DNA of 40,323 nt, taken from NCBI GenBank assembly GCA_016196285.1, contig JACPXY010000056.1:1-40323 (forward strand). The letters are read 5' to 3'. Below, piece after piece: positions 1,052 through 18,804 of this stretch; position 1 is the stretch's first letter; each line of letters begins with the position of its first letter. The DNA comes from Candidatus Pacearchaeota archaeon. Lineage in GTDB: Archaea > Nanobdellota > Nanobdellia > Pacearchaeales > GW2011-AR1. The position numbers and the translations under genes are program-made. The notes under the pieces were generated by a model, which worked only from the letters and a program-made list of their open reading frames with translations, was not told the DNA's origin and did not search any database.

Positions 1052-1243
1052 ATGAATCCTCATAATAAGAAAAGAAGCATACTTGAATTAGCCAGAAAAG
1101 AGAAAGTAGTTACGACATCCGAGATTGCACGCTTCCTCAAGGTCAGCTGGAATACTGCTGAGAGTTACCTCAAAGACTTGGTAATTGAAGGCAAGATGAT
1201 ACAAAAGAAGAAAGAGGGAGTTAATTTATGGCTTATAAAATGA
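1052..1243 (+). CDS. small winged-helix DNA-binding protein (63 aa), possible regulator of the downstream surface cluster
   Basis: The internal Met at 1052 of ORF 887..1243 gives MNPHNKKRSILELARKEKVVTTSEIARFLKVSWNTAESYLKDLVIEGKM, an HTH/wHTH pattern. An AT-rich TATA-like box lies near 1003-1013. The N-terminal extension in the ORF track is antisense to cobO. Confidence 0.55.
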   Translation: MNPHNKKRSILELARKEKVVTTSEIARFLKVSWNTAESYLKDLVIEGKMIQKKKEGVNLWLIK

Positions 1244-2007
1244 TAAGAATGAGAGATAAAAATGGGCAGGCGGCGCTGTGGGTGATTGTTGCACTGGCTT
1301 TTGTGGTTCTTATTGGTCTGCTTATGTTCATCCGGCAGAAGCCTGGGCCGATAACACTTGAAGAGAATTATAATCCTCAAGCATTTATTGACCGATGTGT
1401 GAGAGATGCTGTGCAGGAAGAAGTTGATGTCTTGCTTCCGCGAGGAGGATTTAGAGAGCCGAAGAGCTCGCTCGCATACAAGAATGTCTCGATAACTTAC
1501 TTGTGCATGAATACTGGATATTTCGCTCCCTGCATCAACCAGCATCCGCTCTATATAGAGGAAGTGAAGCAGGAGCTGTATACGAATACGTATGAGAAGA
1601 TTGACTCATGCTTCACTGAACTTGAAACTGCATTAGAACAGCGCAATCAAGAGGTTTCCTTTGGAGAACTAGGTGTCTCCTTTGACCTTGCGCCGCAGCG
1701 CATTCTCGTTTCTCTTGAAAGAGATATGCAGATTCAGGGCCGTGAAGGCAGTGAAACGCTCTCGACTTTTCAGATTTTGATACAGAGTCCCTTTTACGAC
1801 CTTGCGAGCGTCGCTGTAGAGATAGCTAGCCAGGAAGCTTCATACTGCTATTTTGAATACGCCGGATATTCCCTACTGCATCCTGAGACTGAGATTCGGA
1901 AGACCACGCTTTCTGACAGCACCAAGCTCTATTTTATACGTGATGTTTACTCACAAAAAGAATTGACAATTGCGGTACGGGGATGCGCGATACCGCCCGG
2001 AGTTTAA
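1228..2007 (+). CDS. class-III (prepilin-like) signal peptide protein, surface-module component A1
   Basis: N-terminus is (M)RDKNG|QAALWVIVALAFVVLIGLLMF: a short basic leader, Gly-Gln, then a hydrophobic helix. It aligns colinearly with its paralog at 6012..6779 (ITYLCMNTGYFAPCINQHPLYIEEVKQEL versus IKYLCYTTQYYQTCVVQQPLIKEHVEEEL). The start could be 1228, 1240 or 1249. Confidence 0.7.
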   Translation: MAYKMIRMRDKNGQAALWVIVALAFVVLIGLLMFIRQKPGPITLEENYNPQAFIDRCVRDAVQEEVDVLLPRGGFREPKSSLAYKNVSITYLCMNTGYFAPCINQHPLYIEEVKQELYTNTYEKIDSCFTELETALEQRNQEVSFGELGVSFDLAPQRILVSLERDMQIQGREGSETLSTFQILIQSPFYDLASVAVEIASQEASYCYFEYAGYSLLHPETEIRKTTLSDSTKLYFIRDVYSQKELTIAVRGCAIPPGV

Positions 2008-2008
2008 T

Positions 2009-5000
2009 ATGAAACAAAGCATTAAATCTTTTCTTGTGTGCATACAAATCCTTCTCTTGATTACCTTTAGCATCTCATCATCTTACCTTCTCAAGGAAAG
2101 CTCTGGAAGTATCGAAGGTGCAGAGAAAAGACAAAATTCTCTTGATGGCGCGCAGCTTCTTGCTCTGCTTGGCAAACTTCTCTTCGGGAAGAATGGATTT
2201 GTGAATGCGCTTGAGACGAGTGACTTAAGTGCCGGATCCTGGACATGCCTTGAGAGCAAATCTGGAGAAGTATGCCAAGAGTTTGTTGCGAGCGAATGTA
2301 ATTCACTCTGTACATCTGACTGTGTCCCCTCGACGAGAAATAACGTGGCTCAGTGCAAAGTAGGCACGTGCTATGATTCTCGAGAAGGCACGTGTCAAAC
2401 TGGTTCTCCTCAAGCCCTGTGCACTGGTAATAATGGAACATGGTTTGATGATCCGTATGGCAATGTGGCTGAATGCAGACGAGGATGCTGCCTTATCGGA
2501 CAGCAAGCATCATTCATCACTGAACAGCAATGCACTCGCCAGGCATCTTTATTGGGAACAAGCAAGCTCTTCAAGCCAGAGGTCGCAAATGAAGTGGCGT
2601 GTCTCGCGCTCGGGCAATCGCGCGAGGAAGGTGCGTGTGTTTATGGTACTGACACTACTGGTAAGAACTTGTGCAGGTTCACCACGAAAGAAGTGTGTAT
2701 CCAGACTATCAAAGGTGCATTTCACTCCGGGTTCTTATGCTCGCATCCACAGTTGAATACTGCATGTGGAGCGCAGAAATCAACCGGGTGCGTTTCAGGG
2801 AAAGACGAAGTATATTGGTTTGATTCATGCGGCAACCGCGAGAATATCTATGATGCGCAGAAACCGAGGAGTTGGAATAATGGAAGAATCCTGATGAAAG
2901 AGCAGAGCTGCGCGCTCGGTTCTGGAAACAATTATCTTGCTAATGCCCGGGTGTGCGGAAACTGCAATGCCCTCGAGAGCAGTATTTGCAAGAAAGCAAA
3001 TTCCGGAGAAGCCGCGATAGGAGACTTTGTATGCAAGGACTTAAGTTGTGTTGATGAGTGGGGGAACACGAGAAAGCATGGCGAATCATGGTGCAGATAT
3101 CAAGGATCGACAGGTCTTGAAGGAAACAGAGCAACAGATACTGTCGGCAGCAGGCATTTCAGACAGACATGCCTGCGAGGCGATATTGCAGATGATGCGT
3201 GTGCTGATTTCAGAAATGAAGTATGTGTTGAGAGCAAAACAAGTGTCTCCGGCGGCTCGTACTCGACTGCCGCGTGCACAATTAATCGATGGCAGGAATG
3301 CCTAGCGTACAACAATCCCCAGAAACCTGAATTGAAAGATAAATGTTCTACGAATCCGTACTGCTTTATCAAAAGAGTAAGTGTCGGTTCTGACTTTAGT
3401 TTTAATCTCTGTACACCAAAGTATCCTCCAGGATTCTTGCTTGAAGAGAATGGACGCGGAGAAGGGGCTGAGACTATCTGCAGTCTTGCCTCGCAGACGT
3501 GCACAAAAGTCATGGTGAAGAAGCTCACTGGGTGGAAGTGCCAGGCGAACTGCCAGTGTGATACTCCTGCCTTCACGCAACAGATGAATGACTTATGCAT
3601 AAGCTTAGGCGATTGCGGGGCGAAGGCAAATTACCTTGGAGAAATTAGTGAAAGCTACCGCATCAGCGGCGCAGGTGTGCTTGATGGGGCTTATCTCGGC
3701 GGAGTGAAAAGATATGCAGATGAATCTCTCTTTAAGGGGCGTGTTGCTGAAGTAGGTGCTCTTGCTGCATCTCTTGGCAGCCTCGGCAGATCAGACGATA
3801 TTGGATTTGCAGCAGAACCCAGTGATCCGACTGCTAAAACACGAGGCGCGCTGAACCTGCCTATAGGAGCTGCAGGAACACTTCTCGGCCTCGCTGCTGC
3901 GTATGCACCTGGAGCGCTCGGATATCTTGCAGTTGTTAATGTAGCAGGAAGCTTTTCACTTGGCGTCGGCGCGAGCGCAGCAGCTGCTGGAGAGGCTGCA
4001 TCTGCTGGCACAGCCGCGGCAAGCGGAGCTATAGCACCGCAAGTAGCAGGGTTTGCAGGTGTGCTTGCCGGCGCTGCAATGGGGTTTGCACTTACCTCTT
4101 TCTTGATTGACATTACTGGAGTAGGGCGCGGACTTCATCCTGCAGTCACCTACTCTCTGATTGCCGCAGGCACTGTTGGCGGTGCTATCATGGGTTTCAG
4201 CGCTTATGCTGGTGGAAAGCTCGCTGCTGCCTGTGCAACAGGATATGGATGCGTAGTTGTTGCGATTGTCGTGATTATTATCCTTATACTAAAATTTGTC
4301 TTTAATGTTGGAAAAGTAAAACATATTCAGGTTTCATTCCAGTGCAAGCCATGGCAGGCGCCTCTAGGAGGAACGAACTGTGGTAAATGCGGTTCAGACG
4401 GACGGACATGCACGAGGTATGCGTGCTCCTCGTTAGGACAGACGTGCACGCTGATTAATGAGAATACTGATGCAGTTGCATGCATTGACAGTAATCCAAA
4501 CGATGTGGCCTCGCCAGTCCTTAATCCACTTACTTCTTTAATCAGTGTATCTCATTCGTATGAAAATGTCAGCGAGCGCGGATTTACGATTAGGAATATT
4601 CAAACAGGAAGCGGATGTGTTGAGCCGTATTCAACCCTTATCTTCGGTCTCCAGTTGAATGAGCCAGGGCAGTGCAGAGCATCCACGAGCAGCACTGCCT
4701 TATTTAATGAGATGGAGGGTGATTTCGGTATCAGCAGTTTGTTCAGGCACAATCACAGTGTTATCTTGCCTGTGCCTGACCTCAATGCATTGGGATATGC
4801 AGGATATATTCCTGCAAATGCATCAGGGAACTTCAATCTCTTCGTGCGCTGCCAAGACAAGCGAGGAAATGTTAATCTTGCGCCTTATGTGATTAACTTC
4901 TGCGTGCAGAAAGGGGTTGACGTGTCTCCGCCTGCAATAACACATCGAGAGCCTGTGTATGAGTATGTCTCATTTGCAGAGAGTGAGAAGAACATTACAG

Positions 5001-5980
5001 CATATACCAGTGAACCGGCAAGCTGCAGATGGGATGTGATTGATGGAGCGTATGATTCATTGCGCAACACGCTGGCGTGCCTTGATGACCCTGATCAACA
5101 AGGCGTGTTCGGCTGGCCGTGTACTGCACGTGTACCACTTCAGATTAAGAATGATTCCCGTTTCTTCATCAGGTGCAAAGACCAGCCATGGCTGAATAGC
5201 ACAGTTATTGTGTTTAGTATCGGCTCCCAGCAGATACCATACTATGCTAATGCAATTAACTACACGCACCTGCAACGAGTGAACTTCCAGTCAGGCAATC
5301 CAGGAATTACCAATATCACTCTTCCTGAAACACGCATCACTGATATTATTGCGAATGGCACTAACAGAACGCAGAGCCGAAATGTGAATCAGCAGAGTTA
5401 TCCATTTATCCTGCGCAAGAGCACTGCTCCTTTACGCATCGATTCAATAACACCGAACAATCAGACACTCATATTCGGCACAGTTCCTGCATCAGTCAGT
5501 ATACAGGTACAGACCTCTGGAGGCGTTGATGGAACTGCTGCATGCTCATACGTTTTTGGCAACAGCACTATACTCTTCTTCGAGACATGGCGTACTACGC
5601 ACAAGCAAGTATTTCAGTCGCTTTTCCCAGGAGTGATAACCTTGCCGATTATCTGTGAGGACCTTGCTGGAAATACTGCAACAACTACCGCGCGCTTTTC
5701 GGTTGCTCATGATACGCGTGCTCCACGCGTTACACGCACTTACAGCGCCGGCACGATTCTTACAATTATAACTGATGAGCCAAGCCAGTGCATATACGGC
5801 ACAAGCTCATGTAACTTTGAGAGTATGAATGGAACGCTCATGAGCGGAACCCAGCGTATTCACACTGCTGTCTTTGACAAAGAGCGCACGTATTATGTTA
5901 AATGCAAAGATTCTTTTCTGAACGGGCCAGGTAGCGCGTGCAATATTATTGTCAGAAGGAGCCAGGCAGATGTATCGTAA
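2009..5980 (+). CDS. giant Cys-rich surface protein B1 (about 1323 aa): signal peptide, Cys-rich ectodomain, Gly/Ala-rich multi-TM core, Cys knot, four beta-sandwich-like modules
   Basis: Met at 2009 (MKQSIKSFLVCIQILLLITFSISS) is a Sec-type signal and sits 1 nt after the A1 stop codon. There are dozens of Cys and many N-x-S/T sequons in the C-terminal half. The N-half is paralogous to 6776..8257 and the C-half to 9803..12235. Confidence 0.85.
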   Translation: MKQSIKSFLVCIQILLLITFSISSSYLLKESSGSIEGAEKRQNSLDGAQLLALLGKLLFGKNGFVNALETSDLSAGSWTCLESKSGEVCQEFVASECNSLCTSDCVPSTRNNVAQCKVGTCYDSREGTCQTGSPQALCTGNNGTWFDDPYGNVAECRRGCCLIGQQASFITEQQCTRQASLLGTSKLFKPEVANEVACLALGQSREEGACVYGTDTTGKNLCRFTTKEVCIQTIKGAFHSGFLCSHPQLNTACGAQKSTGCVSGKDEVYWFDSCGNRENIYDAQKPRSWNNGRILMKEQSCALGSGNNYLANARVCGNCNALESSICKKANSGEAAIGDFVCKDLSCVDEWGNTRKHGESWCRYQGSTGLEGNRATDTVGSRHFRQTCLRGDIADDACADFRNEVCVESKTSVSGGSYSTAACTINRWQECLAYNNPQKPELKDKCSTNPYCFIKRVSVGSDFSFNLCTPKYPPGFLLEENGRGEGAETICSLASQTCTKVMVKKLTGWKCQANCQCDTPAFTQQMNDLCISLGDCGAKANYLGEISESYRISGAGVLDGAYLGGVKRYADESLFKGRVAEVGALAASLGSLGRSDDIGFAAEPSDPTAKTRGALNLPIGAAGTLLGLAAAYAPGALGYLAVVNVAGSFSLGVGASAAAAGEAASAGTAAASGAIAPQVAGFAGVLAGAAMGFALTSFLIDITGVGRGLHPAVTYSLIAAGTVGGAIMGFSAYAGGKLAAACATGYGCVVVAIVVIIILILKFVFNVGKVKHIQVSFQCKPWQAPLGGTNCGKCGSDGRTCTRYACSSLGQTCTLINENTDAVACIDSNPNDVASPVLNPLTSLISVSHSYENVSERGFTIRNIQTGSGCVEPYSTLIFGLQLNEPGQCRASTSSTALFNEMEGDFGISSLFRHNHSVILPVPDLNALGYAGYIPANASGNFNLFVRCQDKRGNVNLAPYVINFCVQKGVDVSPPAITHREPVYEYVSFAESEKNITAYTSEPASCRWDVIDGAYDSLRNTLACLDDPDQQGVFGWPCTARVPLQIKNDSRFFIRCKDQPWLNSTVIVFSIGSQQIPYYANAINYTHLQRVNFQSGNPGITNITLPETRITDIIANGTNRTQSRNVNQQSYPFILRKSTAPLRIDSITPNNQTLIFGTVPASVSIQVQTSGGVDGTAACSYVFGNSTILFFETWRTTHKQVFQSLFPGVITLPIICEDLAGNTATTTARFSVAHDTRAPRVTRTYSAGTILTIITDEPSQCIYGTSSCNFESMNGTLMSGTQRIHTAVFDKERTYYVKCKDSFLNGPGSACNIIVRRSQADVS

Positions 5981-6011
5981 GTATTATAAACAAAACAGGT
6001 GTCAAGGAAGC

Positions 6012-6779
6012 ATGAGTCAAAAGAGGAAGGGTCAGGCGACGCTCTTTATTATTATTGCACTGGCGATTGTTGCAGTTGCTTTGCTTCTATTCCTCTACTT
6101 TAGACCTAATGGAATTAGTGTGACACAAGACGTAGTAAGCAATCCGGAAGCATATCTTGCCTCATGCATTGAGCCAGATGTAAGGGAGCAGCTTGAGCCT
6201 ATCGGAGCGCAGGGAGGGTATCTGAATCCTGAAGGATACCTCACCTATCAAGGAACAAACATCAAATATCTATGCTACACTACACAGTATTATCAAACAT
6301 GCGTTGTACAGCAACCTTTAATTAAAGAACATGTTGAAGAAGAACTTACTGGTGCCTTGAGCGAATCAGTGAATGAATGCGTGCAGGCACTTATTGATGA
6401 GTATGAACGGCGCGGCTACTCTGTCTCTTCAGGAAGTGTAAGCCATGATGTCTCAATCATACCTCATAGCATCACCCTAAGCATTACTGCACCGATGACT
6501 GTTACCAAGGAGACGAGCAGAACCTTCAATTCATTCAGTGCAGAAATTCCAAGCGAATTTTATGACTTGTTGATAACTGCAACAAGCATCATTGATTTCG
6601 AATCGAAGCTGGGAGATGCTGAAACTCTTGTTTATACACAAGCATATCCTGACCTTGAAGTCAGAAAAGTAAAATTGAGCGATGGCAGCAAAGTGTACAC
6701 TGTCACCGATATCGAGAGTGAAGAATTCTTCACCTTCGCATCGAGGAGCCTTGCCTGGCCTCCGGGATATACTTCATGA
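6012..6779 (+). CDS. class-III (prepilin-like) signal peptide protein, surface-module component A2
   Basis: The internal Met at 6012 gives MSQKRKG|QATLFIIIALAIVAVALLLFLYF. It is a paralog of A1 and its stop overlaps the next start (ATGA at 6776-6779). Confidence 0.7.
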   Translation: MSQKRKGQATLFIIIALAIVAVALLLFLYFRPNGISVTQDVVSNPEAYLASCIEPDVREQLEPIGAQGGYLNPEGYLTYQGTNIKYLCYTTQYYQTCVVQQPLIKEHVEEELTGALSESVNECVQALIDEYERRGYSVSSGSVSHDVSIIPHSITLSITAPMTVTKETSRTFNSFSAEIPSEFYDLLITATSIIDFESKLGDAETLVYTQAYPDLEVRKVKLSDGSKVYTVTDIESEEFFTFASRSLAWPPGYTS

Positions 6780-8257
6780 AACCTATACTGTTCATCTCTA
6801 TTATAGTATTTATTGCATTGCTTACTGGTTCTGCTGCTCAGGAACAAACTGTATGCTGTGAACAGACAACAAATAATCTCTTCTGCCAGCAGGTCTCTCA
6901 AAGCCAGTGTGCACCGAATGCGCGACAAGCACCGACATCCTGCGAATCTACGAGCTTCTGCAAACCTGGAGTCTGCTACAGCCCTGTTGAGGGCACGTGT
7001 ATGGAAAACACTCCTCAGATAACATGCAATGCACGGAATGCTACTTGGTCTGCGACATCTCCTCCTCAATGTAATCTTGGCTGCTGCATTCTCGGTGACC
7101 AGGCCGCATTTGTCTCCCTGGTACGATGCAAACGCCTGGCATCCTTTCTTGGATTGCAGGTCAACTACAATCAGAAGATACAAAGTGAAGTTGCATGTGT
7201 CTTGAGTGTTCAGAACCAGGATAGAGGTGCGTGTGTTTATGAGTCTGAATTTGAAGCAAGCTGCAGATTCACTACCAGAGTTGAATGCAACGCTGGTTTG
7301 AACAGTACTGGGAGCGGCGCATTCTACAAAGACAAACTTTGCACTGCTCCTGAATTAGGCACCGTCTGCGAGCGCACGAGAAAGACAACGTGTGTCCCTG
7401 GCAAAGAGGAAGTATATTTTGTCGATACTTGCGGCAATCCAGCAAATGTATATGATGCAGGAAAGCTTGAAGACACTGCGTACTGGACTAATGTGGTGAA
7501 GCCGGAAAATTCGTGCACTCCTGGCTCAGCGAATGCAAACTCAAAGAGCTGCGGGAACTGCAACTATCTTCAAGGCAGCATCTGCAGATTGGGTGAGCAA
7601 GGTACTAAAGCGACTTACGGAGACTATATCTGCGCTGACTTAAACTGCAAGAGCACCAGCAACGGCAAGCCGTATAAGCACGGCGAGTCCTGGTGCGTGT
7701 ACAAAGATGAAGGAGAGACTGGAAAAGGCAAAAATACCATCGGCAGCAGGTTCTATCGGCACATCTGCTTAAACGGGCAGGAAGTAGTTGAACAGTGCGC
7801 TGACTTCAGACAGGAAGAATGTATTGAATCAGGCATTGAGATCTCATCAGGATTATTTGCGCAGGCGGCATGCAGAGTGAATCGGTGGCAGGACTGCACT
7901 GCGCAGACTGAACAGCTTGATTGCGAGAATAATGATCGGAGAGACTGCCTCTGGCGCTCTGATATTCAGAATGCTAAATCAGGGAGCGGCGCGTGCATCC
8001 CAAAGAATCCTCCTGGATTGAAGTTCTGGGAAGGAGAGCAGGCAAAGGAAATCTGTGCGCAGGGCAACACTCAATGCACTGTAATATTTGAGAAAGGAGT
8101 CTTCGGCGGAGAGAAGTGTGTGGAGAACTGCGAGTGCCTTGATGCTGGATGGGAAAAGCAGCGCATTGCCTACTGCGCTGCATTAGGGGACTGCGGTCCA
8201 AATGTTAATTGGGTCGGCACGAAAGGATACAAGGAAGGATTCACAATAACAAGATAA
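6776..8257 (+). CDS. secreted Cys-rich protein B2N (493 aa), equivalent to the N-terminal ectodomain of B1
   Basis: Signal peptide MKPILFISIIVFIALLTGSAAQ. Long colinear blocks are shared with B1, for example KHGESWC, CGNCN, CADFR.E.C.ES and LGDCG. It ends exactly where the membrane core of B1 begins. Confidence 0.85.
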   Translation: MKPILFISIIVFIALLTGSAAQEQTVCCEQTTNNLFCQQVSQSQCAPNARQAPTSCESTSFCKPGVCYSPVEGTCMENTPQITCNARNATWSATSPPQCNLGCCILGDQAAFVSLVRCKRLASFLGLQVNYNQKIQSEVACVLSVQNQDRGACVYESEFEASCRFTTRVECNAGLNSTGSGAFYKDKLCTAPELGTVCERTRKTTCVPGKEEVYFVDTCGNPANVYDAGKLEDTAYWTNVVKPENSCTPGSANANSKSCGNCNYLQGSICRLGEQGTKATYGDYICADLNCKSTSNGKPYKHGESWCVYKDEGETGKGKNTIGSRFYRHICLNGQEVVEQCADFRQEECIESGIEISSGLFAQAACRVNRWQDCTAQTEQLDCENNDRRDCLWRSDIQNAKSGSGACIPKNPPGLKFWEGEQAKEICAQGNTQCTVIFEKGVFGGEKCVENCECLDAGWEKQRIAYCAALGDCGPNVNWVGTKGYKEGFTITR

Positions 8258-8304
8258 TTATCGTGAACTTTTCGATTTATAGAGTAGAGGGAAGAAAGGA
8301 CTGT

Positions 8305-9033
8305 ATGACCGAAAGATTCTTTAACCATCTTATTCGTGACACGACCATGAAACTATCTCGGGAGAGTGCCTTGCTGCTTACTGCAGCAACTCTTGCAGCG
8401 ACACTGACTTGCTTGGTACAGGCAAAACCCTTTGGTGCAGAAACTGTGCAAATAAGACCAAAATATGAGCCAGTCTTTGTTGCATTGACTCCTGAACATT
8501 ATAAAGAAGCAGCATTACAATGTTCAAAACTTGAAAGTTTTGCTGTTAATGCCTTGACATTCCAGGATTCATCAAGCGGGCCTGCACATATATGGCATCA
8601 GCCAGCATATGCGCATATGACCAATACTCCTGTATATCCTTCCATCTCCATCCTCTTCCTTCACCTCTCTAAATCTAATTATCTTGCGCAGACCTTTAAG
8701 AATCCCTGCCTCTATAAGATTACTGAATACACTCGTGAAGGAAAGCCGAATGCCTCCTGGATTGGCTCGATGCCGTATCAAGAAGACATTGCAACAAACC
8801 GCGCGGAGCGTATCTGCTTCGAAAAGTTCTCCCCTGAGATGACTCGGCTTGAGAGAACGGAGAGAGGAATCTCTGTACCTTCAGGAAAACTGCCCTATGT
8901 GTTTGAAGTCTATGAAGGTGTGGGTTCAAAGAAAAAGATTCATGGACGAATTAACTTTATTCTCGAATGCCCTCCAGTGAAACTTGAGGGTATGCCTCGG
9001 AGGATTGAACTTGAGAACAAAAGGTATAAATAA
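8305..9033 (+). CDS. secreted hypothetical protein
   Basis: Candidate Met at 8305 or 8347. MKLSRESALLLTAATLAATLTCLVQA|KP looks like a signal peptide. No recognisable domain. Confidence 0.55.
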   Translation: MTERFFNHLIRDTTMKLSRESALLLTAATLAATLTCLVQAKPFGAETVQIRPKYEPVFVALTPEHYKEAALQCSKLESFAVNALTFQDSSSGPAHIWHQPAYAHMTNTPVYPSISILFLHLSKSNYLAQTFKNPCLYKITEYTREGKPNASWIGSMPYQEDIATNRAERICFEKFSPEMTRLERTERGISVPSGKLPYVFEVYEGVGSKKKIHGRINFILECPPVKLEGMPRRIELENKRYK

Positions 9034-9053
9034 AATGAATTGCAGGGAATACT

Positions 9054-9761
9054 ATGCGTAAACCATCGCTTGCAGCGCTGCTGAGTGCAGGTATAATTGG
9101 ACTGACTGGATGCAATTCATTCGATGTTGACCCTGATGCGCCCTTCACCCCGGTATATCGTGCCTTAAACTCAGTCGGCATCCGTAAAGATTTTGTAGGA
9201 AGAATAACAGAGGGAAAATCCATTTTTACTGAACCTGCACGAGAGGAGATTATTGTCTATGCACAGCCTCCTGTTCAGCAGGCGCCTAGAGAGACGCAAG
9301 AACCTCAGAAGCCAGAGTATCCTTCTCTTTCTAGAGCAATGCTCATCACTGACTGGATTGACAGAAACACTGACTATGGTCTAAACCCAGGAGAACTTTG
9401 GATTGACCATAATGAGAATGGCATTATCGATGGAGATGATGAATTTCGCGGTTTCAAGATTGACTGGGCGCGAACAAATCCTTTGAGACTCTACTTCTCT
9501 GTCTTTATTCCTTCAGAAAGTCCACTGTTGAATGCATCCATAGTATACACTATTCGTAAAGCAGACACGCGAGAGGTTGTTATCCATTATCAAGACCTTA
9601 ATATTCTAAAACCTTCTTCTAATAATAGAAAGGTAGCAAGCTTTTCTAGCGCTTTTATCCAGAGTCTCCCTGCTGGAATGTATACATGGGAAGTTGGATT
9701 TACAAATGTACACACCTCTTTTGGAGAATCATTAGCTCGGGGACCTCTGCGACTGCATTAA
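9054..9761 (+). CDS. putative lipoprotein with an EF-hand/dockerin-like Ca-binding loop
   Basis: MRKPSLAALLSAGIIGLTG|C is a lipobox-type signal (L-T-G-C). DHNENGIIDGDDE (nt 9405-9443) matches a D-x-N-x-N-G-x-I-D calcium-loop pattern. Confidence 0.6.
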   Translation: MRKPSLAALLSAGIIGLTGCNSFDVDPDAPFTPVYRALNSVGIRKDFVGRITEGKSIFTEPAREEIIVYAQPPVQQAPRETQEPQKPEYPSLSRAMLITDWIDRNTDYGLNPGELWIDHNENGIIDGDDEFRGFKIDWARTNPLRLYFSVFIPSESPLLNASIVYTIRKADTREVVIHYQDLNILKPSSNNRKVASFSSAFIQSLPAGMYTWEVGFTNVHTSFGESLARGPLRLH

Positions 9762-9773
9762 TATTCGGCAATA

Positions 9774-9781
9774 TTTATAAA
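9774..9781 (+). promoter_or_regulatory. TATA-like box (tttataaa) 21 nt upstream of the B2C start; implies a leaderless or very short-leader mRNA
   Basis: An AT-rich octamer in an otherwise GC-richer spacer. The spacing to ATG 9803 fits archaeal TATA-to-TSS distances. Confidence 0.45.
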
Positions 9782-9802
9782 CAAAGGTTCTCTTGCTAGT
9801 CC

Positions 9803-12235
9803 ATGCACAAAAGAGGGCGTAGCGTAGCTGTTGTTTTCTCCTCCTGTCTGCAGATTTTCCTGCTGGTAAGCATGAGTTTTGCGGTTTCTTTTATATTGAG
9901 TGAGAGCGTTGCTGCACAGACTCCTAATGCTCCTGTACCTCAACAAGCTGCACCCACTATCTCTCCTGGAGGTACACTTCCTCCTGATAGAACTATAATT
10001 GATACTCCCACTCCTCCTCCAAGTTCTCCGAGTTCATTAACTAACCCTAGCGGCGTAAGGACAGGTTTAATAAAAAGCCCTGACTCAATTATCTTCAGTC
10101 ATGATGGTCAACAGTATTTCTATGATGCTGATGAAGCAAGGTATTTCACTGCTGATGGGAGTAAAAGTCTACCAGATGTGCCTGTTGGTGCAACAAAAAT
10201 CCAAGGGTTCTCCAGTACAACAGGCACCAGCACATACAGCTGGACAAGCAAGGGAACTTTCACTCTAAAAGGAGAATCTGTTAATGGGCTAGCAGGTACA
10301 CGCACACTTAATGGTGTTGAACAGAATGTTGTGAACATAAAGGGAAGTATCTATGAAGTTGATGCAAATGGAGTTATTGGTGATAAAGTTGGCCAAGGAT
10401 ACTATAAAGAAGGTCCTTTAGGTTTTGGAGGCACTTACAACTTCTTTCTCGGCAATCTGCTGGAGGGAGTTGTCTGGGCAGCGACTGTTGTCGGCGTGAT
10501 ACAGCTGCTTGGTGCGTTGGGAGGATTTGATGAAGAACTTACAAAATCACTTTCATTGTCTGCAGCAGGAGGCATCATTGGCGGAAAAGCAGCCTATGGC
10601 TTGTTCGGCAAAGCTATCCCAGGCAAGGCAGGAAGCGGTGGAATCTGGAAGCAAGGTCTCTCGCCTAAGGCAGGCATTGCTATTGGCGTGGCAATTGCAG
10701 TAGTTATCTTTTTAGTGACTTATAAAGACGAGAAGACGAAGACTGTTTCATTCCAATGCCTGCCATGGGAGCCTCCGATTGGCGGCGCGCAGTGCGAGAA
10801 GTGCAATCAGGATCCACAGCAGCCGTGCTCTGAGTATCGATGCAAGGCTCTTGGGCAGGCTTGTGAGTTGGTGAACAAAGGAAGTGAAAAAGAACAATGT
10901 GTTTGGGTGAGCAGGAACGATGCAATGAGCCCTACTATTACTCCATTAACCTCTGCATTGTCTGATGGATTGTCGTATAAGCCCTTAGTGGCACGGCCTA
11001 CTGCGCTTGGTACTAGAATTGTCAAAGGGCAGGAAGGGTGCATTGAAGCATTCACCCCGCTTGTTTTCGGCATCCAGACAAATGAACCTGCACAATGCAA
11101 GATAGACTATGAAATCAAGAATTACAGCGAGATGCAGTTCTTCTTTGGTGAGAGCAATTATTACTTGCTTAATCATACTCAACGCATGAAACTGCCCTCT
11201 CCGAGAACTGACGCAGGAGAAACTGCGCCTTTGTTCAAGAATGACGGAACATTTAACTTGTACGTGCGCTGCCAGGATGCAAATGGCAATGTGAATGAAG
11301 ACATTTATACAGTAGAGTTCTGCGTGAATAAGGGGCCTGACACTACGCCTCCTGTCATTGAAAGCACGAGCATCATCACAGGCAGCCCTATTCGCTATAA
11401 AGCTGATAGTACGCCGTTTGCCTTATTCGTTAATGAACCGAGCCAGTGCAAGTGGAGCAGAGAAGACAAAGCATATGACAGCATGGAGAATGTATTGAGC
11501 TGTGATGCCTCTGCTGAGTTGATTAATGCTGAACTACGGTATGCGTGTGAGACAAACCTGACCGGCATCATTGACCGGCAGAATAATGAGTTCTTCTTTC
11601 GATGCAGAGATACTGCAGGAAATACCAATGTAGAAAGTATGCCTCTTCTCTTGCGCGGCAGTCAACCGCTCACGATTCTTGAAGTCAAGCCTAACGGCAC
11701 AATCTTCGGCAGCACTGCAACAGTGCCAGTTGAATTGGAAGTGCTGACTGATGACGGCTCTGATGAAGGCGCTGCGCAGTGCTTCTATAATACCACTCTT
11801 ACTGAAGGGTACCAGAAGATGTTTGAAACGGACAGCTTTGCGCATAAACAAATTCAGGATTTAACTTCTGGAAACTACAAGTATGCATTTAGATGCATTG
11901 ATGCAGGCGGTAATATTGCTGAAGCACAGACCAGCTTTACAGTGGTAGTTGACAAGGATGCACCAATAGTTACTAGAACATATCGAGACACTGCCTTGAA
12001 GATTGTCACGAATGAGGATGCTGAGTGCACATATTCAACGCAGAGCTGCAATTTCAATCTCCTCGAAGGCATACGAATGGAATACTCGAATATACAAACA
12101 AAGAATGCGTTATTCGCCCCGTGGAAGCCAGGACAGACGTATTATATCAAATGCGTTGACAAGTACGGAAATCAGCCGACTCCAGATGTATGCAGTGTGC
12201 TTGTCAGTCCTCGACAATTTGCTCAGCAGAGTTAG
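9803..12235 (+). CDS. surface protein B2C (810 aa), equivalent to the membrane core plus C-terminal ectodomain of B1
   Basis: It has its own signal peptide, a Pro/Ser/Thr-rich linker and a Gly/Ala-rich TM region. VSFQCLPWEPPIGGAQCEKCNQDPQQPCSEYRCKALGQACELVN aligns with B1 VSFQCKPWQAPLGGTNCGKCGSDGRTCTRYACSSLGQTCTLIN. Four modules carrying the C...[RK]C.D..GN pattern follow. Confidence 0.85.
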   Translation: MHKRGRSVAVVFSSCLQIFLLVSMSFAVSFILSESVAAQTPNAPVPQQAAPTISPGGTLPPDRTIIDTPTPPPSSPSSLTNPSGVRTGLIKSPDSIIFSHDGQQYFYDADEARYFTADGSKSLPDVPVGATKIQGFSSTTGTSTYSWTSKGTFTLKGESVNGLAGTRTLNGVEQNVVNIKGSIYEVDANGVIGDKVGQGYYKEGPLGFGGTYNFFLGNLLEGVVWAATVVGVIQLLGALGGFDEELTKSLSLSAAGGIIGGKAAYGLFGKAIPGKAGSGGIWKQGLSPKAGIAIGVAIAVVIFLVTYKDEKTKTVSFQCLPWEPPIGGAQCEKCNQDPQQPCSEYRCKALGQACELVNKGSEKEQCVWVSRNDAMSPTITPLTSALSDGLSYKPLVARPTALGTRIVKGQEGCIEAFTPLVFGIQTNEPAQCKIDYEIKNYSEMQFFFGESNYYLLNHTQRMKLPSPRTDAGETAPLFKNDGTFNLYVRCQDANGNVNEDIYTVEFCVNKGPDTTPPVIESTSIITGSPIRYKADSTPFALFVNEPSQCKWSREDKAYDSMENVLSCDASAELINAELRYACETNLTGIIDRQNNEFFFRCRDTAGNTNVESMPLLLRGSQPLTILEVKPNGTIFGSTATVPVELEVLTDDGSDEGAAQCFYNTTLTEGYQKMFETDSFAHKQIQDLTSGNYKYAFRCIDAGGNIAEAQTSFTVVVDKDAPIVTRTYRDTALKIVTNEDAECTYSTQSCNFNLLEGIRMEYSNIQTKNALFAPWKPGQTYYIKCVDKYGNQPTPDVCSVLVSPRQFAQQS

Positions 12236-12627: not shown

Positions 12628-12876
12628 TTATTTATAAATATCTTTTATATGTCCTATTTTAATTACACTTATCATCAATTTCTCCTTATTTAAATCTATG
12701 AACAATCTAAAATCTCCTATTCTTAACTTATATCCTCTTTCTCCAACTAGCTTTATTAAAAAAGCTTCTGGCCTTATTCTTATCTTCTCCAGCCCATTTA
12801 GTATTTGAATTCTTGACTGACTTTCTGATTTATCTAAAAACCTTATTGCCTTCTTAGAAAATTCTATATTATACAT
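12628..12876 (-). CDS. RelE/ParE-superfamily type II toxin
   Basis: 82 aa. MYNIEFSKKAIRFLDK...GERGYKLRIGDFRLFIDLNKEKLMISVIKIGHIKDIY is the typical RelE/StbE pattern. It follows a small upstream ORF directly. Confidence 0.7.
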   Translation of the reverse strand: MYNIEFSKKAIRFLDKSESQSRIQILNGLEKIRIRPEAFLIKLVGERGYKLRIGDFRLFIDLNKEKLMISVIKIGHIKDIYK

Positions 12877-13104
12877 TTATAGGTGGTATCTCTTTTTTAC
12901 CTGCTCTAAACTAAGAGATTCTCCTCTTTTAATCTGCTCTCTTCCTTCTTTTATATCTTTTTTAGTTTCTTCTGATAATTGTATAGTGTCTTCTAAAAGA
13001 TTCCAGATTATCTCTTCGTATGTTTCTTTAAGGAACAACTTTTTATTATTTAAAGCATTTTGCAAGTCTTGACTTATCTGAATAGTTGTATTTACCATAA
13101 CCAA
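12877..13104 (-). CDS. putative cognate antitoxin
   Basis: A 75-aa acidic ORF whose stop abuts the toxin start. The family is not recognisable by eye. The block is AT-rich. Confidence 0.5.
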   Translation of the reverse strand: MVMVNTTIQISQDLQNALNNKKLFLKETYEEIIWNLLEDTIQLSEETKKDIKEGREQIKRGESLSLEQVKKRYHL

Positions 13105-13172
13105 CTATAGTAGGTTATAGTATTTAAATATATCTATATTCTCAAGTTTATGTGGTCTCTCTGTATACAAAA

Positions 13173-13182
13173 CTATAAATAT
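13173..13182 (+). promoter_or_regulatory. TATA-like box (ctataaatat) 22 nt upstream of the trpS ATG
   Basis: Its position relative to ATG 13205 suggests a leaderless transcript. A second box (tatttaaata, 13121-13130) faces the toxin-antitoxin operon. Confidence 0.45.
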
Positions 13183-13204
13183 AGAAGATAGACTAGAGCG
13201 AGCA

Positions 13205-14251
13205 ATGGCATCGAGAATCTTAAGTGGTATGCGACCGACAGGAAAGATCCACATAGGCCACATGGTCGGTGCAATCGACAACTGGATCGAGCTGCAGAAA
13301 AAATATGAGTGCTTCTACTTCGTTGCTGATTGGCATGCGATGACCACTGAAACCGATACCTCTGGGATAAAACAAAACACGGTGGAGATGGTCAAAGATT
13401 GGCTGTCTGCGGGAGTTAATCCCGAGAAAAGCGTTATTTTCATCCAATCATTGGTTCCACAGCACGCCGAGCTGCATATGGTACTTTCAATGCTAAATAC
13501 GCTGCCGAGACTCGAACGATTGCCGACGTATAAGGGACATTTGAAACAAGTTTTAGAGATTACGGACCCTAAGATTGAACCGACTGAAGAACAAATTGAT
13601 CGGGCGCGGAGCAAAATATCCTATGGCTTCGTCGGCTATCCTGTGCTTATGGCAGCAGACATTCTTGCGTATAGGGCTGATGGTGTGCCTGTTGGTGAAG
13701 ATCAGGATCCCCACCTTGAGCTTGCGCGGGAAATCGCTGATAGATTCAACAGACTCTATGGAAATGTGTTTCCAATTCCTGAATCACTGCATACCATCAC
13801 GCCCCGCATTCTGGGTACTGACGGGCGTAAGATGAGCAAGAGTCTGGGCAATGCGATTCATCCGACTGACACACTTGAGGTTATGAGTGCTGGTGTGAGA
13901 AAGATGCTGACTGACCCTCAGCGCTCCAGAAGGGAAATTGGAGGCAATCCGAATGTATGCAGCGTCTATGATCTGCATATGGCTTATACCTCTGAAGAAA
14001 GAAATCTCGAGATACATCAGGCATGCAACACAGCGCAGATAGGATGCACTGAATGCAAACGAGAAGCGGCAGCTCAGATGGCAAAGAAATATGAAGGATA
14101 TGCTGAACGCAGAGCGGTCTGGGATGGTAGAGAAAGACAGATTATCGAAATCCTTATGGAAGGATCGCGGAAAGCGCGGGAAATCGCTGGTGCGACACTC
14201 CAGCAGGTGCGGGAACATCTGCTCATCGACTATGAGAACATTACTGCCTGA
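13205..14251 (+). CDS. trpS: tryptophanyl-tRNA synthetase, bacterial-type, with a C-terminal Cys4 motif
   Basis: RILSGMRPTGKIHIGHMVG (HIGH motif), KMSKSLGN (KMSKS motif), about 348 aa, typical of bacterial TrpRS. Carries C-x21-C-x6-C-x2-C at nt 13958-14056. Confidence 0.85.
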   Translation: MASRILSGMRPTGKIHIGHMVGAIDNWIELQKKYECFYFVADWHAMTTETDTSGIKQNTVEMVKDWLSAGVNPEKSVIFIQSLVPQHAELHMVLSMLNTLPRLERLPTYKGHLKQVLEITDPKIEPTEEQIDRARSKISYGFVGYPVLMAADILAYRADGVPVGEDQDPHLELAREIADRFNRLYGNVFPIPESLHTITPRILGTDGRKMSKSLGNAIHPTDTLEVMSAGVRKMLTDPQRSRREIGGNPNVCSVYDLHMAYTSEERNLEIHQACNTAQIGCTECKREAAAQMAKKYEGYAERRAVWDGRERQIIEILMEGSRKAREIAGATLQQVREHLLIDYENITA

Positions 14252-14836
14252 GTTGATACTCATGCAGCGGGGCTTTTCTGCACAGGAGCTTGCGAAAGTT
14301 CAAGCATTCTATGATGTTGTGCAGCAGAATATCGCTCTGCCTGTTGCTACTATTGTCGATGCGTGCGCAGGAAGCGGTTTGTGTTCTCTCGCATTTCTTC
14401 AGAGAGATGCAAGCCATGCGATACTTATTGATTCCCGGAAGCCTAAGCGCTTCCAACGCATTGCAGATCTCACTGTAACCGGCTCATATATATATACCTT
14501 GAACAATCACTTGCCAAAGTTTCCCTTCCCAATCTGCAGAAACCAGCACTACTTACTGCAATCCATGCCTGCTCCGAGCTATCTGATCAAGTCATTGCCT
14601 TCGGATTGAGGCATCGCCTGCCGTTCGCGCTGTTGACCTGCTGCCATACATCCACTATTCCTGAGTATATACTCCGAAATCCGCCTGATCCACGGCTCTT
14701 GCGGTATCCCTCTAGAGATGTGTATGTCGATTTGCTCCGGCAGAGATATATTGAAGAATGTGGATGGCAATGCATCCGAGCAGAAATACCTCAGAAAATT
14801 ACCCCTCAGAACCGTATCCTGATAGGTATACCGTAG
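14232..14836 (+). pseudogene. SAM-dependent methyltransferase (Methyltransf_32-like), frameshifted
   Basis: The N-part (codon frame of ATG 14232) carries IVDACAGSGLCSL (motif I). The C-part continues only in a frame offset by 2 nt: ALLTAIHACSELSDQVIAFGLRHRLPFALLTCCH (an HAC..L.D motif). That frame is open from 14447, and the first frame stops at 14609. A (TA)5 tract lies in the overlap. Confidence 0.6.
14486..14496. repeat. dinucleotide tract atatatatata ((TA)5) at the methyltransferase frameshift point
   Basis: Read directly from the sequence. Removing one TA unit would join the two reading frames. Confidence 0.8.
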
Positions 14837-14958
14837 TATAAAAGAATTTATAAATCCCTTTATAATGCATCATCTATGAATCAATCACTCATCGCACAGG
14901 TGTATCGGTGGCGATAGCCACATACTAACTCTCTTATCACTGGAGGTATCTCTTTTTT

Positions 14959-15555
14959 ATGGCCTCATCTAGAAAAACTATTCAAACTCCTCATGTTTCT
15001 CTATCCCGTATAGAACGCAAGGGAATCCGTGTTGAGCTCACCCCTATAGAGTTAGATGGTGCAGTTAGTGTTGCATTGCGAGCATTTGGAAGAGGCATGT
15101 CTGCGAGAGAAGTTACCGAGCATGTGCTCCCTGTAGATGTACTCTATCTTGCCTGGAAGGCTGATGTTGTGGTTGGATTCGCGTCGCTCTCGTTTAATCA
15201 ATCCCCTCCTTATTTCGCAGGAACTGTGGTTGATCCGGCACACCAGGGAGAAAAAATATATATGACTCTGGCAAGACAGCGCATCCTCGATACGATTGAG
15301 AGAGGCCATAATTCATTTATGACTAGAACACAAAACCCTGTGATTGAACATGCATTGACTCGTTCTCTGACGAGTCTTGTTGCAGAACAGCATATTAAAA
15401 ATTTTGATATCCGGCGCGAGCTTGCCCCTAAAGTTTATGGGAGAATGCTCACTGCAGAGAGACCATTCAGCAGAGATGAAACAGTGAATACTATTTATGC
15501 ACAATTGAATTACATGAGGGGAGACGCATTTAAATTAACCTTCGTCCTTCAATGA
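14959..15555 (+). CDS. hypothetical protein, possibly GNAT-like acyltransferase
   Basis: GTVVDPAHQGEKIYMTLARQRI weakly resembles GNAT motif A. GGAGGT lies 12 nt upstream of the start. There is an ATGA overlap with the next gene. Confidence 0.4.
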   Translation: MASSRKTIQTPHVSLSRIERKGIRVELTPIELDGAVSVALRAFGRGMSAREVTEHVLPVDVLYLAWKADVVVGFASLSFNQSPPYFAGTVVDPAHQGEKIYMTLARQRILDTIERGHNSFMTRTQNPVIEHALTRSLTSLVAEQHIKNFDIRRELAPKVYGRMLTAERPFSRDETVNTIYAQLNYMRGDAFKLTFVLQ

Positions 15556-16463
15556 ATATTGTCTTTAAACCAATCAGCTCTCCTGATTCCCGACCGCTTG
15601 GATTCCATGTCATGACATTGGGCAAGGGGGTCCCTAAGATCTGCTTTGTGTGTGGAATTCATGGAGATGAGATAACTCCCCATTATCTCATTCAGAAACT
15701 GTGTGCAGTCGAAGAAAAACTGCCCGTTTCTTTGGCAATCGTCCTCGATGCGAACCCGCGTGCGCTTGCTGTACAGCAACGTGAGACTCCTGATGACAAG
15801 CTTGACTTGAATCGGGTCTTTCCAGGCAATCCAGAAGGCAATATCACAGAACGAATCGCCGATGCACTGTACCATTATGTGCAGGAGTTTGAACTAATAA
15901 TTGAATTACACACGTTTGAAAGAATGGATATGGAAGCTTTCTGCATTATCCCGACTGCAGATGGAACTTTGAATGAACGCGCACTAGATATCCTGGCAGG
16001 ATTTGAACCCTGGTATGTGTGGAAACCGAACATCCAAACGAATTCCGAGGGAAAGTATAAAGGCGCTTTGGGAACCACTCTTGCCGGCAGCGGGAAGCCT
16101 GCATTTGTGATTGAATTCCCCTCGGTACGTGTGCTGAACGATAAAGAATTGGATATGTATGCCGAGCGATTGATACGCATGCTTTCAGGAATAGGAGCTC
16201 CTGTGCAAAGAAACTTCCACCTCATTGAACGGATTGAGGGAAAAGCCCCGACTGCAGGATTGTTCACACCTTGTGCTCGTTTGCATATCGAAGTAAAACC
16301 AGGAGAGTGCATTGGGGAACTCTTCTCGATTGAGAATGGAGAGCGAACAGAAGTCTGTGTAAGTAGTGCAGGTATACTCTTCCAGATACGTCATCGTGGT
16401 CTGGTAAAAAAAGATGAGCCACTTTACGCTCTAGGTGTACCGGCAGGAGGCGCGCATGAATAA
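15552..16463 (+). CDS. succinylglutamate desuccinylase/aspartoacylase (AstE/AspA, M14-like) family protein
   Basis: CGIHGDE...NPRAL...DLNRVFPGNPEGNITERIA...ELHTFE matches the Zn-ligand and family motifs. Confidence 0.7.
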   Translation: MNIVFKPISSPDSRPLGFHVMTLGKGVPKICFVCGIHGDEITPHYLIQKLCAVEEKLPVSLAIVLDANPRALAVQQRETPDDKLDLNRVFPGNPEGNITERIADALYHYVQEFELIIELHTFERMDMEAFCIIPTADGTLNERALDILAGFEPWYVWKPNIQTNSEGKYKGALGTTLAGSGKPAFVIEFPSVRVLNDKELDMYAERLIRMLSGIGAPVQRNFHLIERIEGKAPTAGLFTPCARLHIEVKPGECIGELFSIENGERTEVCVSSAGILFQIRHRGLVKKDEPLYALGVPAGGAHE

Positions 16464-16564
16464 GAACAAAGGTTTAAATATAGTCGACATGCGTCAAGGG
16501 CAGATGACGTTACATATGTACCGCTCCGCCACTCACTGGCATTAGATAGGTATCTTTACCTTAA

Positions 16565-18205: not shown

Positions 18206-18804
18206 AGAAGCGCGTTCTTTTTATTGACAACTTTGACTCATTTACATATAATCTTGTTGACGAATTCGCCAAGCGTCACTGCCAAATAGAAGTCTACCGG
18301 AATAATGTACCTATGTCAAAGATTGAATCAGTGGTTGATGCCTTTAAACCCCATCTGCTGGTCATCTCTCCTGGTCCAGCTTCTCCACAGGAAGCAGGGA
18401 ACTCCATGCCTGTCATCCAAAGGTATCATACTGAACTGCCTATCTTTGGCGTCTGCCTGGGCTATGAAGCAATGGTTGAGGCATTCGGAGGTAGAATTGA
18501 TAAGGCGCCGGTGCCGATGCACGGCAAATCGTCCTATATCAAGCATGACGGTAAGACTTTGTTCGAGGGTCTGGAAAATCCTCTCGCTGTCGGAAGATAC
18601 CATTCATTGTGCGCAACAATTCTTCCTGACTGCCTTGAACAGAGTGCGCAATGTGAAGATATTAATATGGCAATTAGGCACAAACAGTATTTTGTCGAAG
18701 GAGTATTATTCCATCCAGAATCGATACTAACAACGTTAGGGGGCCGCATCATAGAGAATCTGCTCAAACGCGTTTTCCTGGCTCAAAACAAAAAGCTTAA
18801 ATAG
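18202..18804 (+). CDS. trpG: anthranilate synthase component II / class I glutamine amidotransferase (TrpG/PabA)
   Basis: MKKRVLFIDNFDSFTYNLV, GVCLGYEAM (catalytic Cys) and FHPES (His/Glu). ATGA overlap with the trpE stop. The start is the internal Met of ORF 18166. Confidence 0.8.
   Translation: MKKRVLFIDNFDSFTYNLVDEFAKRHCQIEVYRNNVPMSKIESVVDAFKPHLLVISPGPASPQEAGNSMPVIQRYHTELPIFGVCLGYEAMVEAFGGRIDKAPVPMHGKSSYIKHDGKTLFEGLENPLAVGRYHSLCATILPDCLEQSAQCEDINMAIRHKQYFVEGVLFHPESILTTLGGRIIENLLKRVFLAQNKKLK

Follow-up and report, generated by a model that had tools for sequence, protein, structure and literature searches.

Fused and split forms of a putative head-and-stalk surface protein in a conserved locus of Pacearchaeota-type archaea

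Genes of the locus and homology between the two sets

The window analyzed here is a stretch of 40,323 nucleotides (nt) from a Candidatus Pacearchaeota archaeon (assembly GCA_016196285.1, contig JACPXY010000056.1, positions 1 to 40,323 of the forward strand). It contains two paralogous sets of genes, each made up of a pilin-like protein (A1 or A2) and a Cys-rich protein, which in set 1 is a single polypeptide (B1) and in set 2 is distributed over two genes (B2N and B2C). The order on the + strand is HTH, A1, B1, A2, B2N, X, Y and B2C, followed on the opposite strand by a gene for a Holliday-junction resolvase (Hjc). The features are listed below; domain boundaries of B1 are those of an AlphaFold2 (AF2) model, and those of the B2C core and stalk follow from homology with the B1 tail.

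1052..1243, + strand: small winged-helix (helix-turn-helix, HTH) gene; opens the locus and overlaps the A1 start; weak NCBIfam matches of the Lrs14/Sso10a/DeoR type
1228..2007, + strand: A1, pilin-like; class III (prepilin-type) signal, in which a hydrophobic helix of 20 amino acids (aa) follows NGQ
2009..5980, + strand: B1, single-chain form, 1323 aa, directly downstream of A1
2009-2104, + strand: B1 leader helix (aa 1-32)
2216-3781, + strand: B1 Cys-rich head (aa 70-591)
3782-4045, + strand: B1 disordered Gly/Ala linker (aa 592-679)
4046-4300, + strand: B1 membrane core, three helices (aa 680-764)
4316-5977, + strand: B1 Cys knot and four beta-sandwich modules (aa 770-1323)
5949..6779, + strand: A2, second pilin-like protein (KGQATLF...); the likelier ATG is at 5970
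6776..8257, + strand: B2N, head-only secreted protein, 493 aa with 43 Cys; Sec-type signal and no membrane anchor
8305..9033, + strand: X, gene for an orphan secreted protein, between B2N and B2C
9054..9761, + strand: Y (also L), lipoprotein (lipobox LTGC) from a family recurrent in the B2N-B2C interval, of which it is a divergent member
9774..9781, + strand: TATA box of B2C, TTTATAAA, 29 nt before the ATG
9803..12235, + strand: B2C, headless scaffold, 810 aa
9803-9916, + strand: B2C family leader, common to B1 (aa 1-38)
9917-10441, + strand: B2C hypervariable Pro/Ser/Thr-rich region (aa 39-213)
10442-10726, + strand: B2C membrane core (aa 214-308)
10727-12232, + strand: B2C Cys knot and four beta-sandwich modules (aa 309-810)

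The first-pass annotation of the window had proposed that B2N and B2C are colinear with successive parts of B1, and pairwise as well as profile alignments bear this out. Residues 64-544 of B1 align colinearly with residues 12-481 of B2N at 37% identity (E=1e-89), and residues 682-1319 align with residues 215-805 of B2C at 33-37% identity (E=2e-55). Comparison of one family profile with the other, from B1 residue 768 to the end and over B2C 308-806, yielded E=2e-128. The Cys columns match at 40 of 45 positions in the head and at all 21 in the tail; since about 32% identity remains once these columns are removed (31.6% in the head, 32.5% in the tail), a coincidence of Cys spacing is excluded, and with E-values of this size the same holds for low-complexity similarity. 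The motif VSFQC.PW..P.GG..C..C and the repeated modules that go with it are invariant in the B1 and B2C families. B2N and B2C are homologous to distinct, colinear parts of one protein, as the components of a Rosetta-stone pair are to their composite, and, in agreement with the annotation, equal domain content is carried by one polypeptide in set 1 and by two in set 2.

In database searches the three proteins define separate families, almost all members of which are labelled hypothetical and come from Pacearchaeota/Nanoarchaeota assemblies. B1 has 499 homologues, the best 120 of which are 1134-1457 aa long; the best 120 homologues of B2N are 476-565 aa long and 58-68% identical to it, and the best 120 of B2C measure 607-992 aa.

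A1 and A2 are paralogues (33% identity, E=2e-45), and both have a class III signal, which is defined by charged N-terminal residues, Gly followed by Gln, Ala or Ser, and a hydrophobic helix of about 20 residues. The N-termini inspected, out of 65 A1-type and 80 A2-type open reading frames (ORFs), have [KR]GQ and a hydrophobic stretch, and in the alignment of the A family Q29 is invariant and G28 nearly so. Searches with A1 against Pfam, NCBIfam and the PDB gave no hit. The conserved-locus genes listed include none noted as an assembly ATPase, a platform protein or a prepilin peptidase, the rest of the genome not having been searched.

Conservation, leaders and fused relatives

Relatives of B2N were sought in one genome per GTDB species, which gave 469 places; the best 80 loci were fetched, and removal of duplicates left 79 loci with a stand-alone head. 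A fused B1 lies upstream of this head in 59 of the 62 loci that have enough upstream sequence. B2C follows B2N on the same strand in 51 of the 79, at distances of 1 to 7367 nt (median 1365), and in five of them the two genes abut (gaps of 1 to 76 nt). The general order is a CobA-like gene on the opposite strand, HTH, A1, B1, A2, B2N, B2C at some distance, and finally Hjc, again on the opposite strand; the orthologous HTH gene, encoding 60-117 aa, sits before A1 in many loci. With the same architecture recovered from 79 species-level assemblies, the split is confirmed as genuine and not an artefact of assembly. The heads of B1 and B2N are reciprocally monophyletic, as are the tails of B1 and B2C, and identity between paralogues is 36-37% both within a genome and between genomes; the duplication is therefore older than the sampled radiation.

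Several loci deviate from the general order. Locus L042 reads CobA-A2-B2N-B2C and has no A1-B1 cassette, L067 has two A1-B1 cassettes, and L084 carries a ParE/MazE pair between its two A-B cassettes. In L069 and L081 B1 is broken into two ORFs, which may be due to frameshifts in those assemblies. A 736-aa protein encoded upstream in L002 was considered and is not a homologue of B2C.

The N-termini of B1 and B2C share a common motif (..EIFLLvSMSFAFSYiI.ES.. and ..QIFLLiSmSFAfSFiL.E.., respectively) followed by a V-S-A site, whereas those of B2N are ordinary, non-conserved secretion signals followed by TVCCEKT. At E<1e-3, a hidden Markov model (HMM) of 27 positions built from B1 leaders recognized 91 of the 120 N-termini from B2C proteins and none of the 120 from B2N proteins; its matches in 2365 control ORFs were almost exclusively to proteins of the B1 or B2C type. 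Even where B2N and B2C abut, B2C still opens with its own Lys-rich leader. From the Cys knot onwards the B2C family is of constant length (488-525 aa), and the segment between leader and core, which occupies the same position as the B1 head, ranges from about 49 to 354 aa. The earlier suggestion that B2C had acquired a signal peptide of its own is not sustained: its leader is the B1-type family leader, and the unrelated signal is that of B2N. In a simple fission the upstream product would keep the leader of the parent and the downstream product would gain an unrelated N-terminus; neither is observed here. Because B2C shares the B1 leader and B2N lacks it, the arrangement does not correspond to a simple end-to-end cut, and the head appears instead to have been inserted into, or removed from, a scaffold of leader, linker, core and stalk.

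The sequence of the leader helix (2009-2104 and 9803-9916) is retained in hundreds of proteins, a degree of conservation not usual in signal peptides, and the V-S-A site lies about 11 residues past the helix in B2C and about 44 in B1. Five B2C-type proteins (P0479, P0460, P0380, P0394 and P0462) have long unrelated inserts of up to about 600 aa at the position of the B1 head; these are mostly free of Cys, one contains 30, and no known Pfam domain was found in them. This position after the leader looks like a general slot that can take alternative heads.

A survey of fused and split homologues was carried out with a B2C profile against 1.84 billion cluster representatives, which retrieved 1624 proteins at E<=1e-30. 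The best 150 were examined and 146 new ones classified: 139 consist of the tail only, and seven, of 1227-1456 aa, contain both head and tail. In each of the seven the head is nearer to B2N than to the B1 head and the tail nearer to B2C than to the B1 tail; for P0392, the head scored 481 bits against B2N and 297 against B1, and the tail 515 bits against B2C and 237 against B1. Their order is leader, VSA, a CCEKT-type head, linker, core and tail. An internal relic leader, as expected of an end-to-end fusion, was found neither in 120 B1 proteins nor in the seven fused set-2 proteins. These single-chain orthologues of B2N plus B2C in related lineages strengthen the Rosetta-stone relation that had been proposed on the basis of B1.

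Four genomic contexts of fused set-2 proteins were examined. An A2-type gene precedes the fused protein in three of them. Two of these three also have, at a greater distance upstream, a gene of the A1 type and a first fused B, so that the layout is A-B-A-B with both copies fused; in the third, L083, all that is left upstream is a broken B-like tail where the contig ends. The A genes of the fourth context both score nearer to A2. Four further pilin-like genes stand behind the fused set-2 protein in the first three contexts (L083 6767-9283, L085 14692-17377 and L087 14090-17349), their N-termini being KKAQ or KKGF followed by a hydrophobic helix. In two of these three, a protein of 878-916 aa that matches the Pfam family S_layer_C is also encoded after the second B (L083 and L085/L086).

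Midpoint-rooted neighbour-joining (NJ) trees, calculated without bootstrapping, place the fused set-2 proteins as a basal grade inside the set-2 clade, with the main B2N clade (38 of 39 sequences) and the main B2C clade (15 of 17) nested above them. On this topology parsimony favours a fused ancestor of set 2 and a derived split, and we regard that direction as likely. Close relatives differ in state as well. Residues 2-550 of the fused P0392 are 65% identical to the B2N of L076, leader included, and residues 743-1351 are 60.5% identical to the B2C of L076. L076 has a leader-like N-terminus on the head gene in addition to the leader that belongs to B2C, an arrangement seen less clearly in L075; the intergenic DNA of these two loci yielded no trace of the P0392 linker. 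Since the L076 head groups with P0392 and not with the main B2N clade, the state has changed at least once among close relatives, and more than one change is probable. As both products have leaders, the simplest route would be a tandem duplication followed by complementary loss.

Transcription units, predicted structure and location

A TATA box of its own had been assigned to B2C at 9774-9781, and the comparison with orthologues confirms it: of 48 B2C genes searched with a loose pattern, 40 have a TATA-like octamer at a distance of 24-34 nt (mostly 29) upstream of the start. It is likewise present in 29 of 45 lipoprotein genes, compared with 13 of 76 A2, 3 of 79 B2N, 2 of 62 B1 and 4 of 61 A1 genes. 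Most B2C orthologues also have a conserved element, aatATTTATAAa, at equal distance from the start. In the window, X is preceded by TTTATAGA at 8276-8283 and Y by TATAAATA at 9025-9032, each 29 nt upstream of the ATG. A spacing of 29 nt in B2C would fit a leaderless transcript.

The junctions A-B1, B1-A and A-B2N, by comparison, mostly measure -4 to +1 nt. In the window, one base separates A1 from B1, the coding regions of B1 and A2 overlap where the former ends, and A2 shares its last 4 nt with the start of B2N. With the first ATG taken as the start, A and B2N overlap by 4 nt in 33 of the 79 loci; such an overlap could exist in 49. From spacing and promoter-like elements we infer that A1-B1-A2-B2N would form one operon and that the lipoprotein gene and B2C would be separate, probably leaderless units.

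When the ORFs between B2N and B2C were clustered across the 51 loci, one recurrent lipobox family emerged (35 ORFs in 32 loci, + strand), which is built of the lipobox, a Gly/Ala-rich N-terminal part, a calcium-site-like W.D.N..G.ID motif and a C-terminal beta domain. The HMM of this family matches Y with E=7e-8, the motif and the C-terminal beta region being shared; the member in L001 is found at 11589-12212. The family may be a further component of the system. X has no homologue in the 80 related loci and no match in Pfam or NCBIfam. The interval 8258-9802, made up of one orphan gene and one member of a family present in 32 of 51 loci, is accordingly not a misassembled insertion. Y was also considered as the counterpart of the B1 segment between head and core, which would make the split a three-way one; hhalign found no similarity.

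The AF2 model of B2N, calculated from an alignment of 93 sequences, has a mean predicted local distance difference test (pLDDT) score of 81.9 and is elongated, mostly beta and Cys-rich. In that of B1 residues 1-1200 (pLDDT 80.8), residues 2-32 form a leader helix and 70-591 a head modelled with confidence; residues 592-684 are disordered and rich in Gly/Ala, and helices at 680-703, 711-733 and 747-764 are followed by beta structure. B2N ends at about B1 residue 556; from there the ordered head continues for some 35 residues, and the first core helix begins about 125 residues on. The annotation had put the break exactly at the boundary between ectodomain and membrane core; the position holds roughly, the exactness does not.

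Foldseek searches with the B2N model found no neighbour in the PDB (best E=0.75) or among the viral models of BFVD (best E=0.13), and a fusexin/HAP2-type or viral fusion glycoprotein, considered as a candidate for the head, showed no fold similarity to it. The B1 model retrieved only generic tandem arrays of immunoglobulin (Ig)-like domains (TEP1, alpha-2-macroglobulin, cadherins, Fabs and MG-domain proteins). For the head, Pfam, NCBIfam and the PDB offer no match; scanning all seven proteins of the locus against Pfam and NCBIfam gave nothing past weak Ig-like matches, and PDB profile searches with the head and the A family gave nothing credible.

Conserved Cys number 43-44 in the heads and 21 in the tails. 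The ratio of observed to expected N-glycosylation sequons is 0.29 in B1 heads, 0.46 in B2N and 0.42 in the globular part of A, against 1.49 in B1 tails, 0.88 in B2C tails and 1.18 in cytoplasmic controls, so that sequons are depleted 2- to 3.4-fold in heads and A proteins. The variable region of B2C contains a single sequon in 101 family proteins, compared with 98 +/- 9 in shuffled sequences, although 23 non-glycosylatable NP[ST] triplets are present. In the tails, N-x-[ST] is conserved with a variable middle residue at one position of B2C (95 of 102) and at one of B1 (82 of 103). We read this as heads and linker that would be exposed to the glycosylation machinery and yet kept free of glycans, on a stalk that would lie outside the cell and be glycosylated. 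An outward location is favoured because of the 43-67 conserved Cys, the sequon pattern and the weak Pfam matches to extracellular Ig-like domains. In the B2C family a Lys is conserved in the middle helix of the core, which may run in the plane of the membrane; the result would be a two-span hairpin.

For the same pairs of species, median identity is 59.9% for B2N and 46.7% for B1 heads, and 55.1% for B2C and 40.7% for B1 tails; both set-2 proteins evolve more slowly than the matching parts of B1. Partial correlation of the distance matrices is 0.43 for B2N with B2C and 0.50 for the two halves of B1, as against 0.11 and 0.21 for head-tail combinations across the sets. Together with the fused orthologues and the synteny in 51 of 79 loci, these figures are indirect evidence that B2N and B2C may act as a unit.

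Interpretation, alternatives and related systems

These data are best explained by two ancient paralogous sets of a cell-surface system in Pacearchaeota-type (DPANN) archaea, of which set 2 is split, a reading to which we assign a probability of about 60%. Set 1 comprises the pilin-like A1 and B1, the latter uniting in one chain a leader helix, a disulfide-rich head of orphan fold, a flexible linker, a membrane core, a Cys knot and a four-module Ig-like stalk. In set 2, equal parts are encoded by separate genes: A2 and B2N would be translationally coupled at the end of an A1-B1-A2-B2N operon and B2C (leader, variable linker, core and stalk) driven by its own strong promoter, usually after the small lipoprotein gene. 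The single chain would be the ancestral form and the split a derived one, probably reached by the duplication and complementary loss described above. With head and stalk both facing outwards, B2N would dock non-covalently on B2C, on A2 or on both, and so stay on the cell, and set 2 would rebuild the architecture of B1; the complex would serve adhesion or surface recognition, probably as an adhesin.

Several observations weigh against this interpretation. B2C is missing from about 11 loci with full 10-kb flanks, and in one of these genomes it is found on another contig; having its own promoter and being sometimes unlinked, it could work independently. What invariably accompanies a head-bearing gene is a pilin-like A gene and not B2C, and B2N could be held by A2 instead. 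Between head and tail AF2 predicts three helices, an odd number, which taken literally would imply a cytoplasmic tail; the Lys-rich segment that follows the final core helix also conflicts with an outward tail. The NJ trees are unbootstrapped, and the slow evolution of set 2 could attract outgroups.

The strongest rival builds on the first of these points. B2N and B2C would be independent paralogues that match B1 by ancestry only, B2C acting alone, for instance as an abundant protein of the envelope or stalk or a carrier of other variable inserts, and B2N acting only with the coupled A2, as a secreted or pilin-tethered factor. The conserved promoter of B2C, its separation from B2N in some genomes, the A gene that always precedes head-bearing genes at tight junctions, and the variable inserts of the B2C family at the site of the B1 head (49-354 aa, and up to about 600 aa in other representatives) all speak for it. 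It does not readily account for the B2C gene that follows B2N on the same strand in 51 of 79 loci and abuts it in five, for the matched shifts in rate and a mirror-tree partial correlation (0.43) near that of covalently linked halves, or for the switching of close relatives between fused and split states at 60-65% identity. We consider it somewhat unlikely, roughly a one-in-four matter, and retain the split set-2 complex as the preferred reading.

A second alternative reverses the direction of change: the split form would be ancestral, and B1 and the fused set-2 proteins would have arisen by repeated insertion of a head-coding region downstream of the leader in a B2C-like gene. In its favour, fusion of genes is in general a more frequent event than fission, the B2C family accepts very different lengths in the region that follows its leader, and abutting B2N-B2C pairs occur. 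Such a history would nevertheless require the order leader-head-linker-core-tail to have been reached independently in B1 and in several set-2 lineages, and an end-to-end fusion would have left the internal leader that is absent from the 120 B1 and seven fused set-2 proteins; moreover, the lineages in which both copies are fused share the A-B-A-B layout. An ancestral split is distinctly unlikely on these grounds.

Simple fission of a B1-like gene, by a stop and a new start at the boundary between head and core with later evolution of a signal peptide on the downstream half, agrees with the colinear gene order, B2N being upstream of B2C, and with the gaps of 1 to 76 nt in the five abutting pairs. 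It is very improbable in view of the B1-type family leader that B2C has and main-clade B2N lacks, of the leader that abutting B2C genes still start with, of the leader-like N-termini on both genes in the L075/L076 lineage and of the missing linker relic in intergenic DNA. Finally, although at least one damaged essential gene in the window, the AspRS-like gene, makes local sequence errors possible, an artefact of misassembly, sequencing error, low complexity or Cys spacing has a negligible probability given 79 independent species-level assemblies with the split, ORFs that are all intact with their signals and promoters, a Y gene that belongs to a family conserved at its position, E-values of 1e-89 and 2e-55, and 32% identity outside Cys.

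Rosetta-stone pairs, that is, gene fusions and fissions, have reportedly been used to infer functional linkage in analyses of the Marcotte/Enright type. As in such pairs, the composites (B1 and P0392) cover B2N and B2C colinearly, the components are usually neighbours and their rates track each other. The present case differs in that there is no clean partition, since B2C keeps the N-terminal leader of the composite and the head acts as an insert; in that composite and split forms coexist as ancient paralogues in one operon region; and in the change of state, at least once and probably more often, among close relatives.

The two-component S-layers of Sulfolobales consist of a SlaA canopy and a membrane-anchored SlaB stalk. 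The likeness is one of architecture only and lies in a soluble outer subunit combined with a membrane-anchored beta-sandwich stalk, both secreted and the stalk carrying sequons; the difference lies in the anchor, which in the B proteins is an internal helical core instead of a C-terminal helix. An archaeal S-layer protein (SlaA/SlaB or S_layer_C) was considered for B, and no S-layer match was found among PDB sequences, as a specific Foldseek hit or in Pfam. B is probably not the S-layer itself, because sister lineages encode a separate S_layer_C-type protein close by.

The stalk beta-sandwiches resemble Big_13 (PF19077), DUF4625 and Y_Y_Y in a C.D..GN-type strand motif and in weak matches to these models, but have conserved Cys pairs of their own and are preceded by a unique knot of seven Cys. 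B2C of the window scores 25.6 bits against PF19077, below the gathering threshold of 27; some members of the B2C family have a precomputed match to it, and at the level of the fold the resemblance to Ig-like domains is clear.

Archaeal type IV filament loci place pilin-like proteins with class III signals beside large Ig-rich, adhesin-like proteins (bioRxiv 10.64898/2026.04.22.720090). The present locus is similar in the prepilin-type N-termini of A1 and A2, in their position directly upstream of large proteins with Ig-like modules and in the four further pilin-like genes downstream in sister lineages; it differs in that none of its conserved genes was noted as an assembly ATPase, platform protein or prepilin peptidase, the B proteins have their own membrane anchor and the Cys-rich head is an orphan fold.

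A literature search found no published description of this family. Pacearchaeota-type archaea are abundant, uncultured organisms with tiny genomes and an almost undescribed cell surface, and here a locus of about 10 kb is conserved throughout the clade (469 places for B2N and 1624 clusters matching the stalk profile at E<=1e-30) with all of its proteins annotated as hypothetical. Naturally fused and split versions, including a pair that has diverged by 35-40%, offer a ready-made design for testing the binding of part to part, and a case in which a membrane protein divides while both parts keep targeting signals. The orphan fold of the head and its extreme avoidance of sequons are handles for structural work and glycobiology. 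Fusion and fission are in themselves known phenomena; what makes the case useful, though not revolutionary, is a head of orphan fold, a leader that is retained, repeated changes of state and the avoidance of sequons.

More tentatively, and with the odds against it, the A-B system could be the host-contact apparatus of Pacearchaeota-type DPANN symbionts, in which a glycan-free, disulfide-locked head would bind the partner cell from the top of a glycosylated Ig-like stalk with a pilin-like partner. If so, switching between covalent (B1, fused B2) and non-covalent (B2N plus B2C) forms would tune whether the head is fixed or can be released and exchanged, and the leader helix, instead of being a disposable signal peptide, would either function within the membrane core or act as a dedicated signal for sorting.

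Beyond the locus, an ORF of 82 aa that adjoins Hjc (12628-12876, - strand) looks like a RelE/ParE-type toxin, by eye only. The AspRS-like gene, for a class II tRNA synthetase (19182-20578, - strand), is disrupted by an in-frame TAA at 19820-19822 in place of the motif 2 Glu (ARNFRN*GIDKWHNPEF) and by a frameshift near 19340-19355; its orthologues in L001 and L002 are intact at 500-507 aa, and the gene of the window either contains a point or indel error of the assembly or is a pseudogene. Hjc and AspRS nearly adjoin in L001 and L002 and are separated in the window by a block at about 12900-19200, which contains TrpRS (13205-14251), an AstE/AspA-like gene and the anthranilate synthase genes TrpE/TrpG (16565-18804). 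The GC content of this block is 0.44-0.47, compared with 0.36-0.41, and on account of this higher value it may be an inserted segment.

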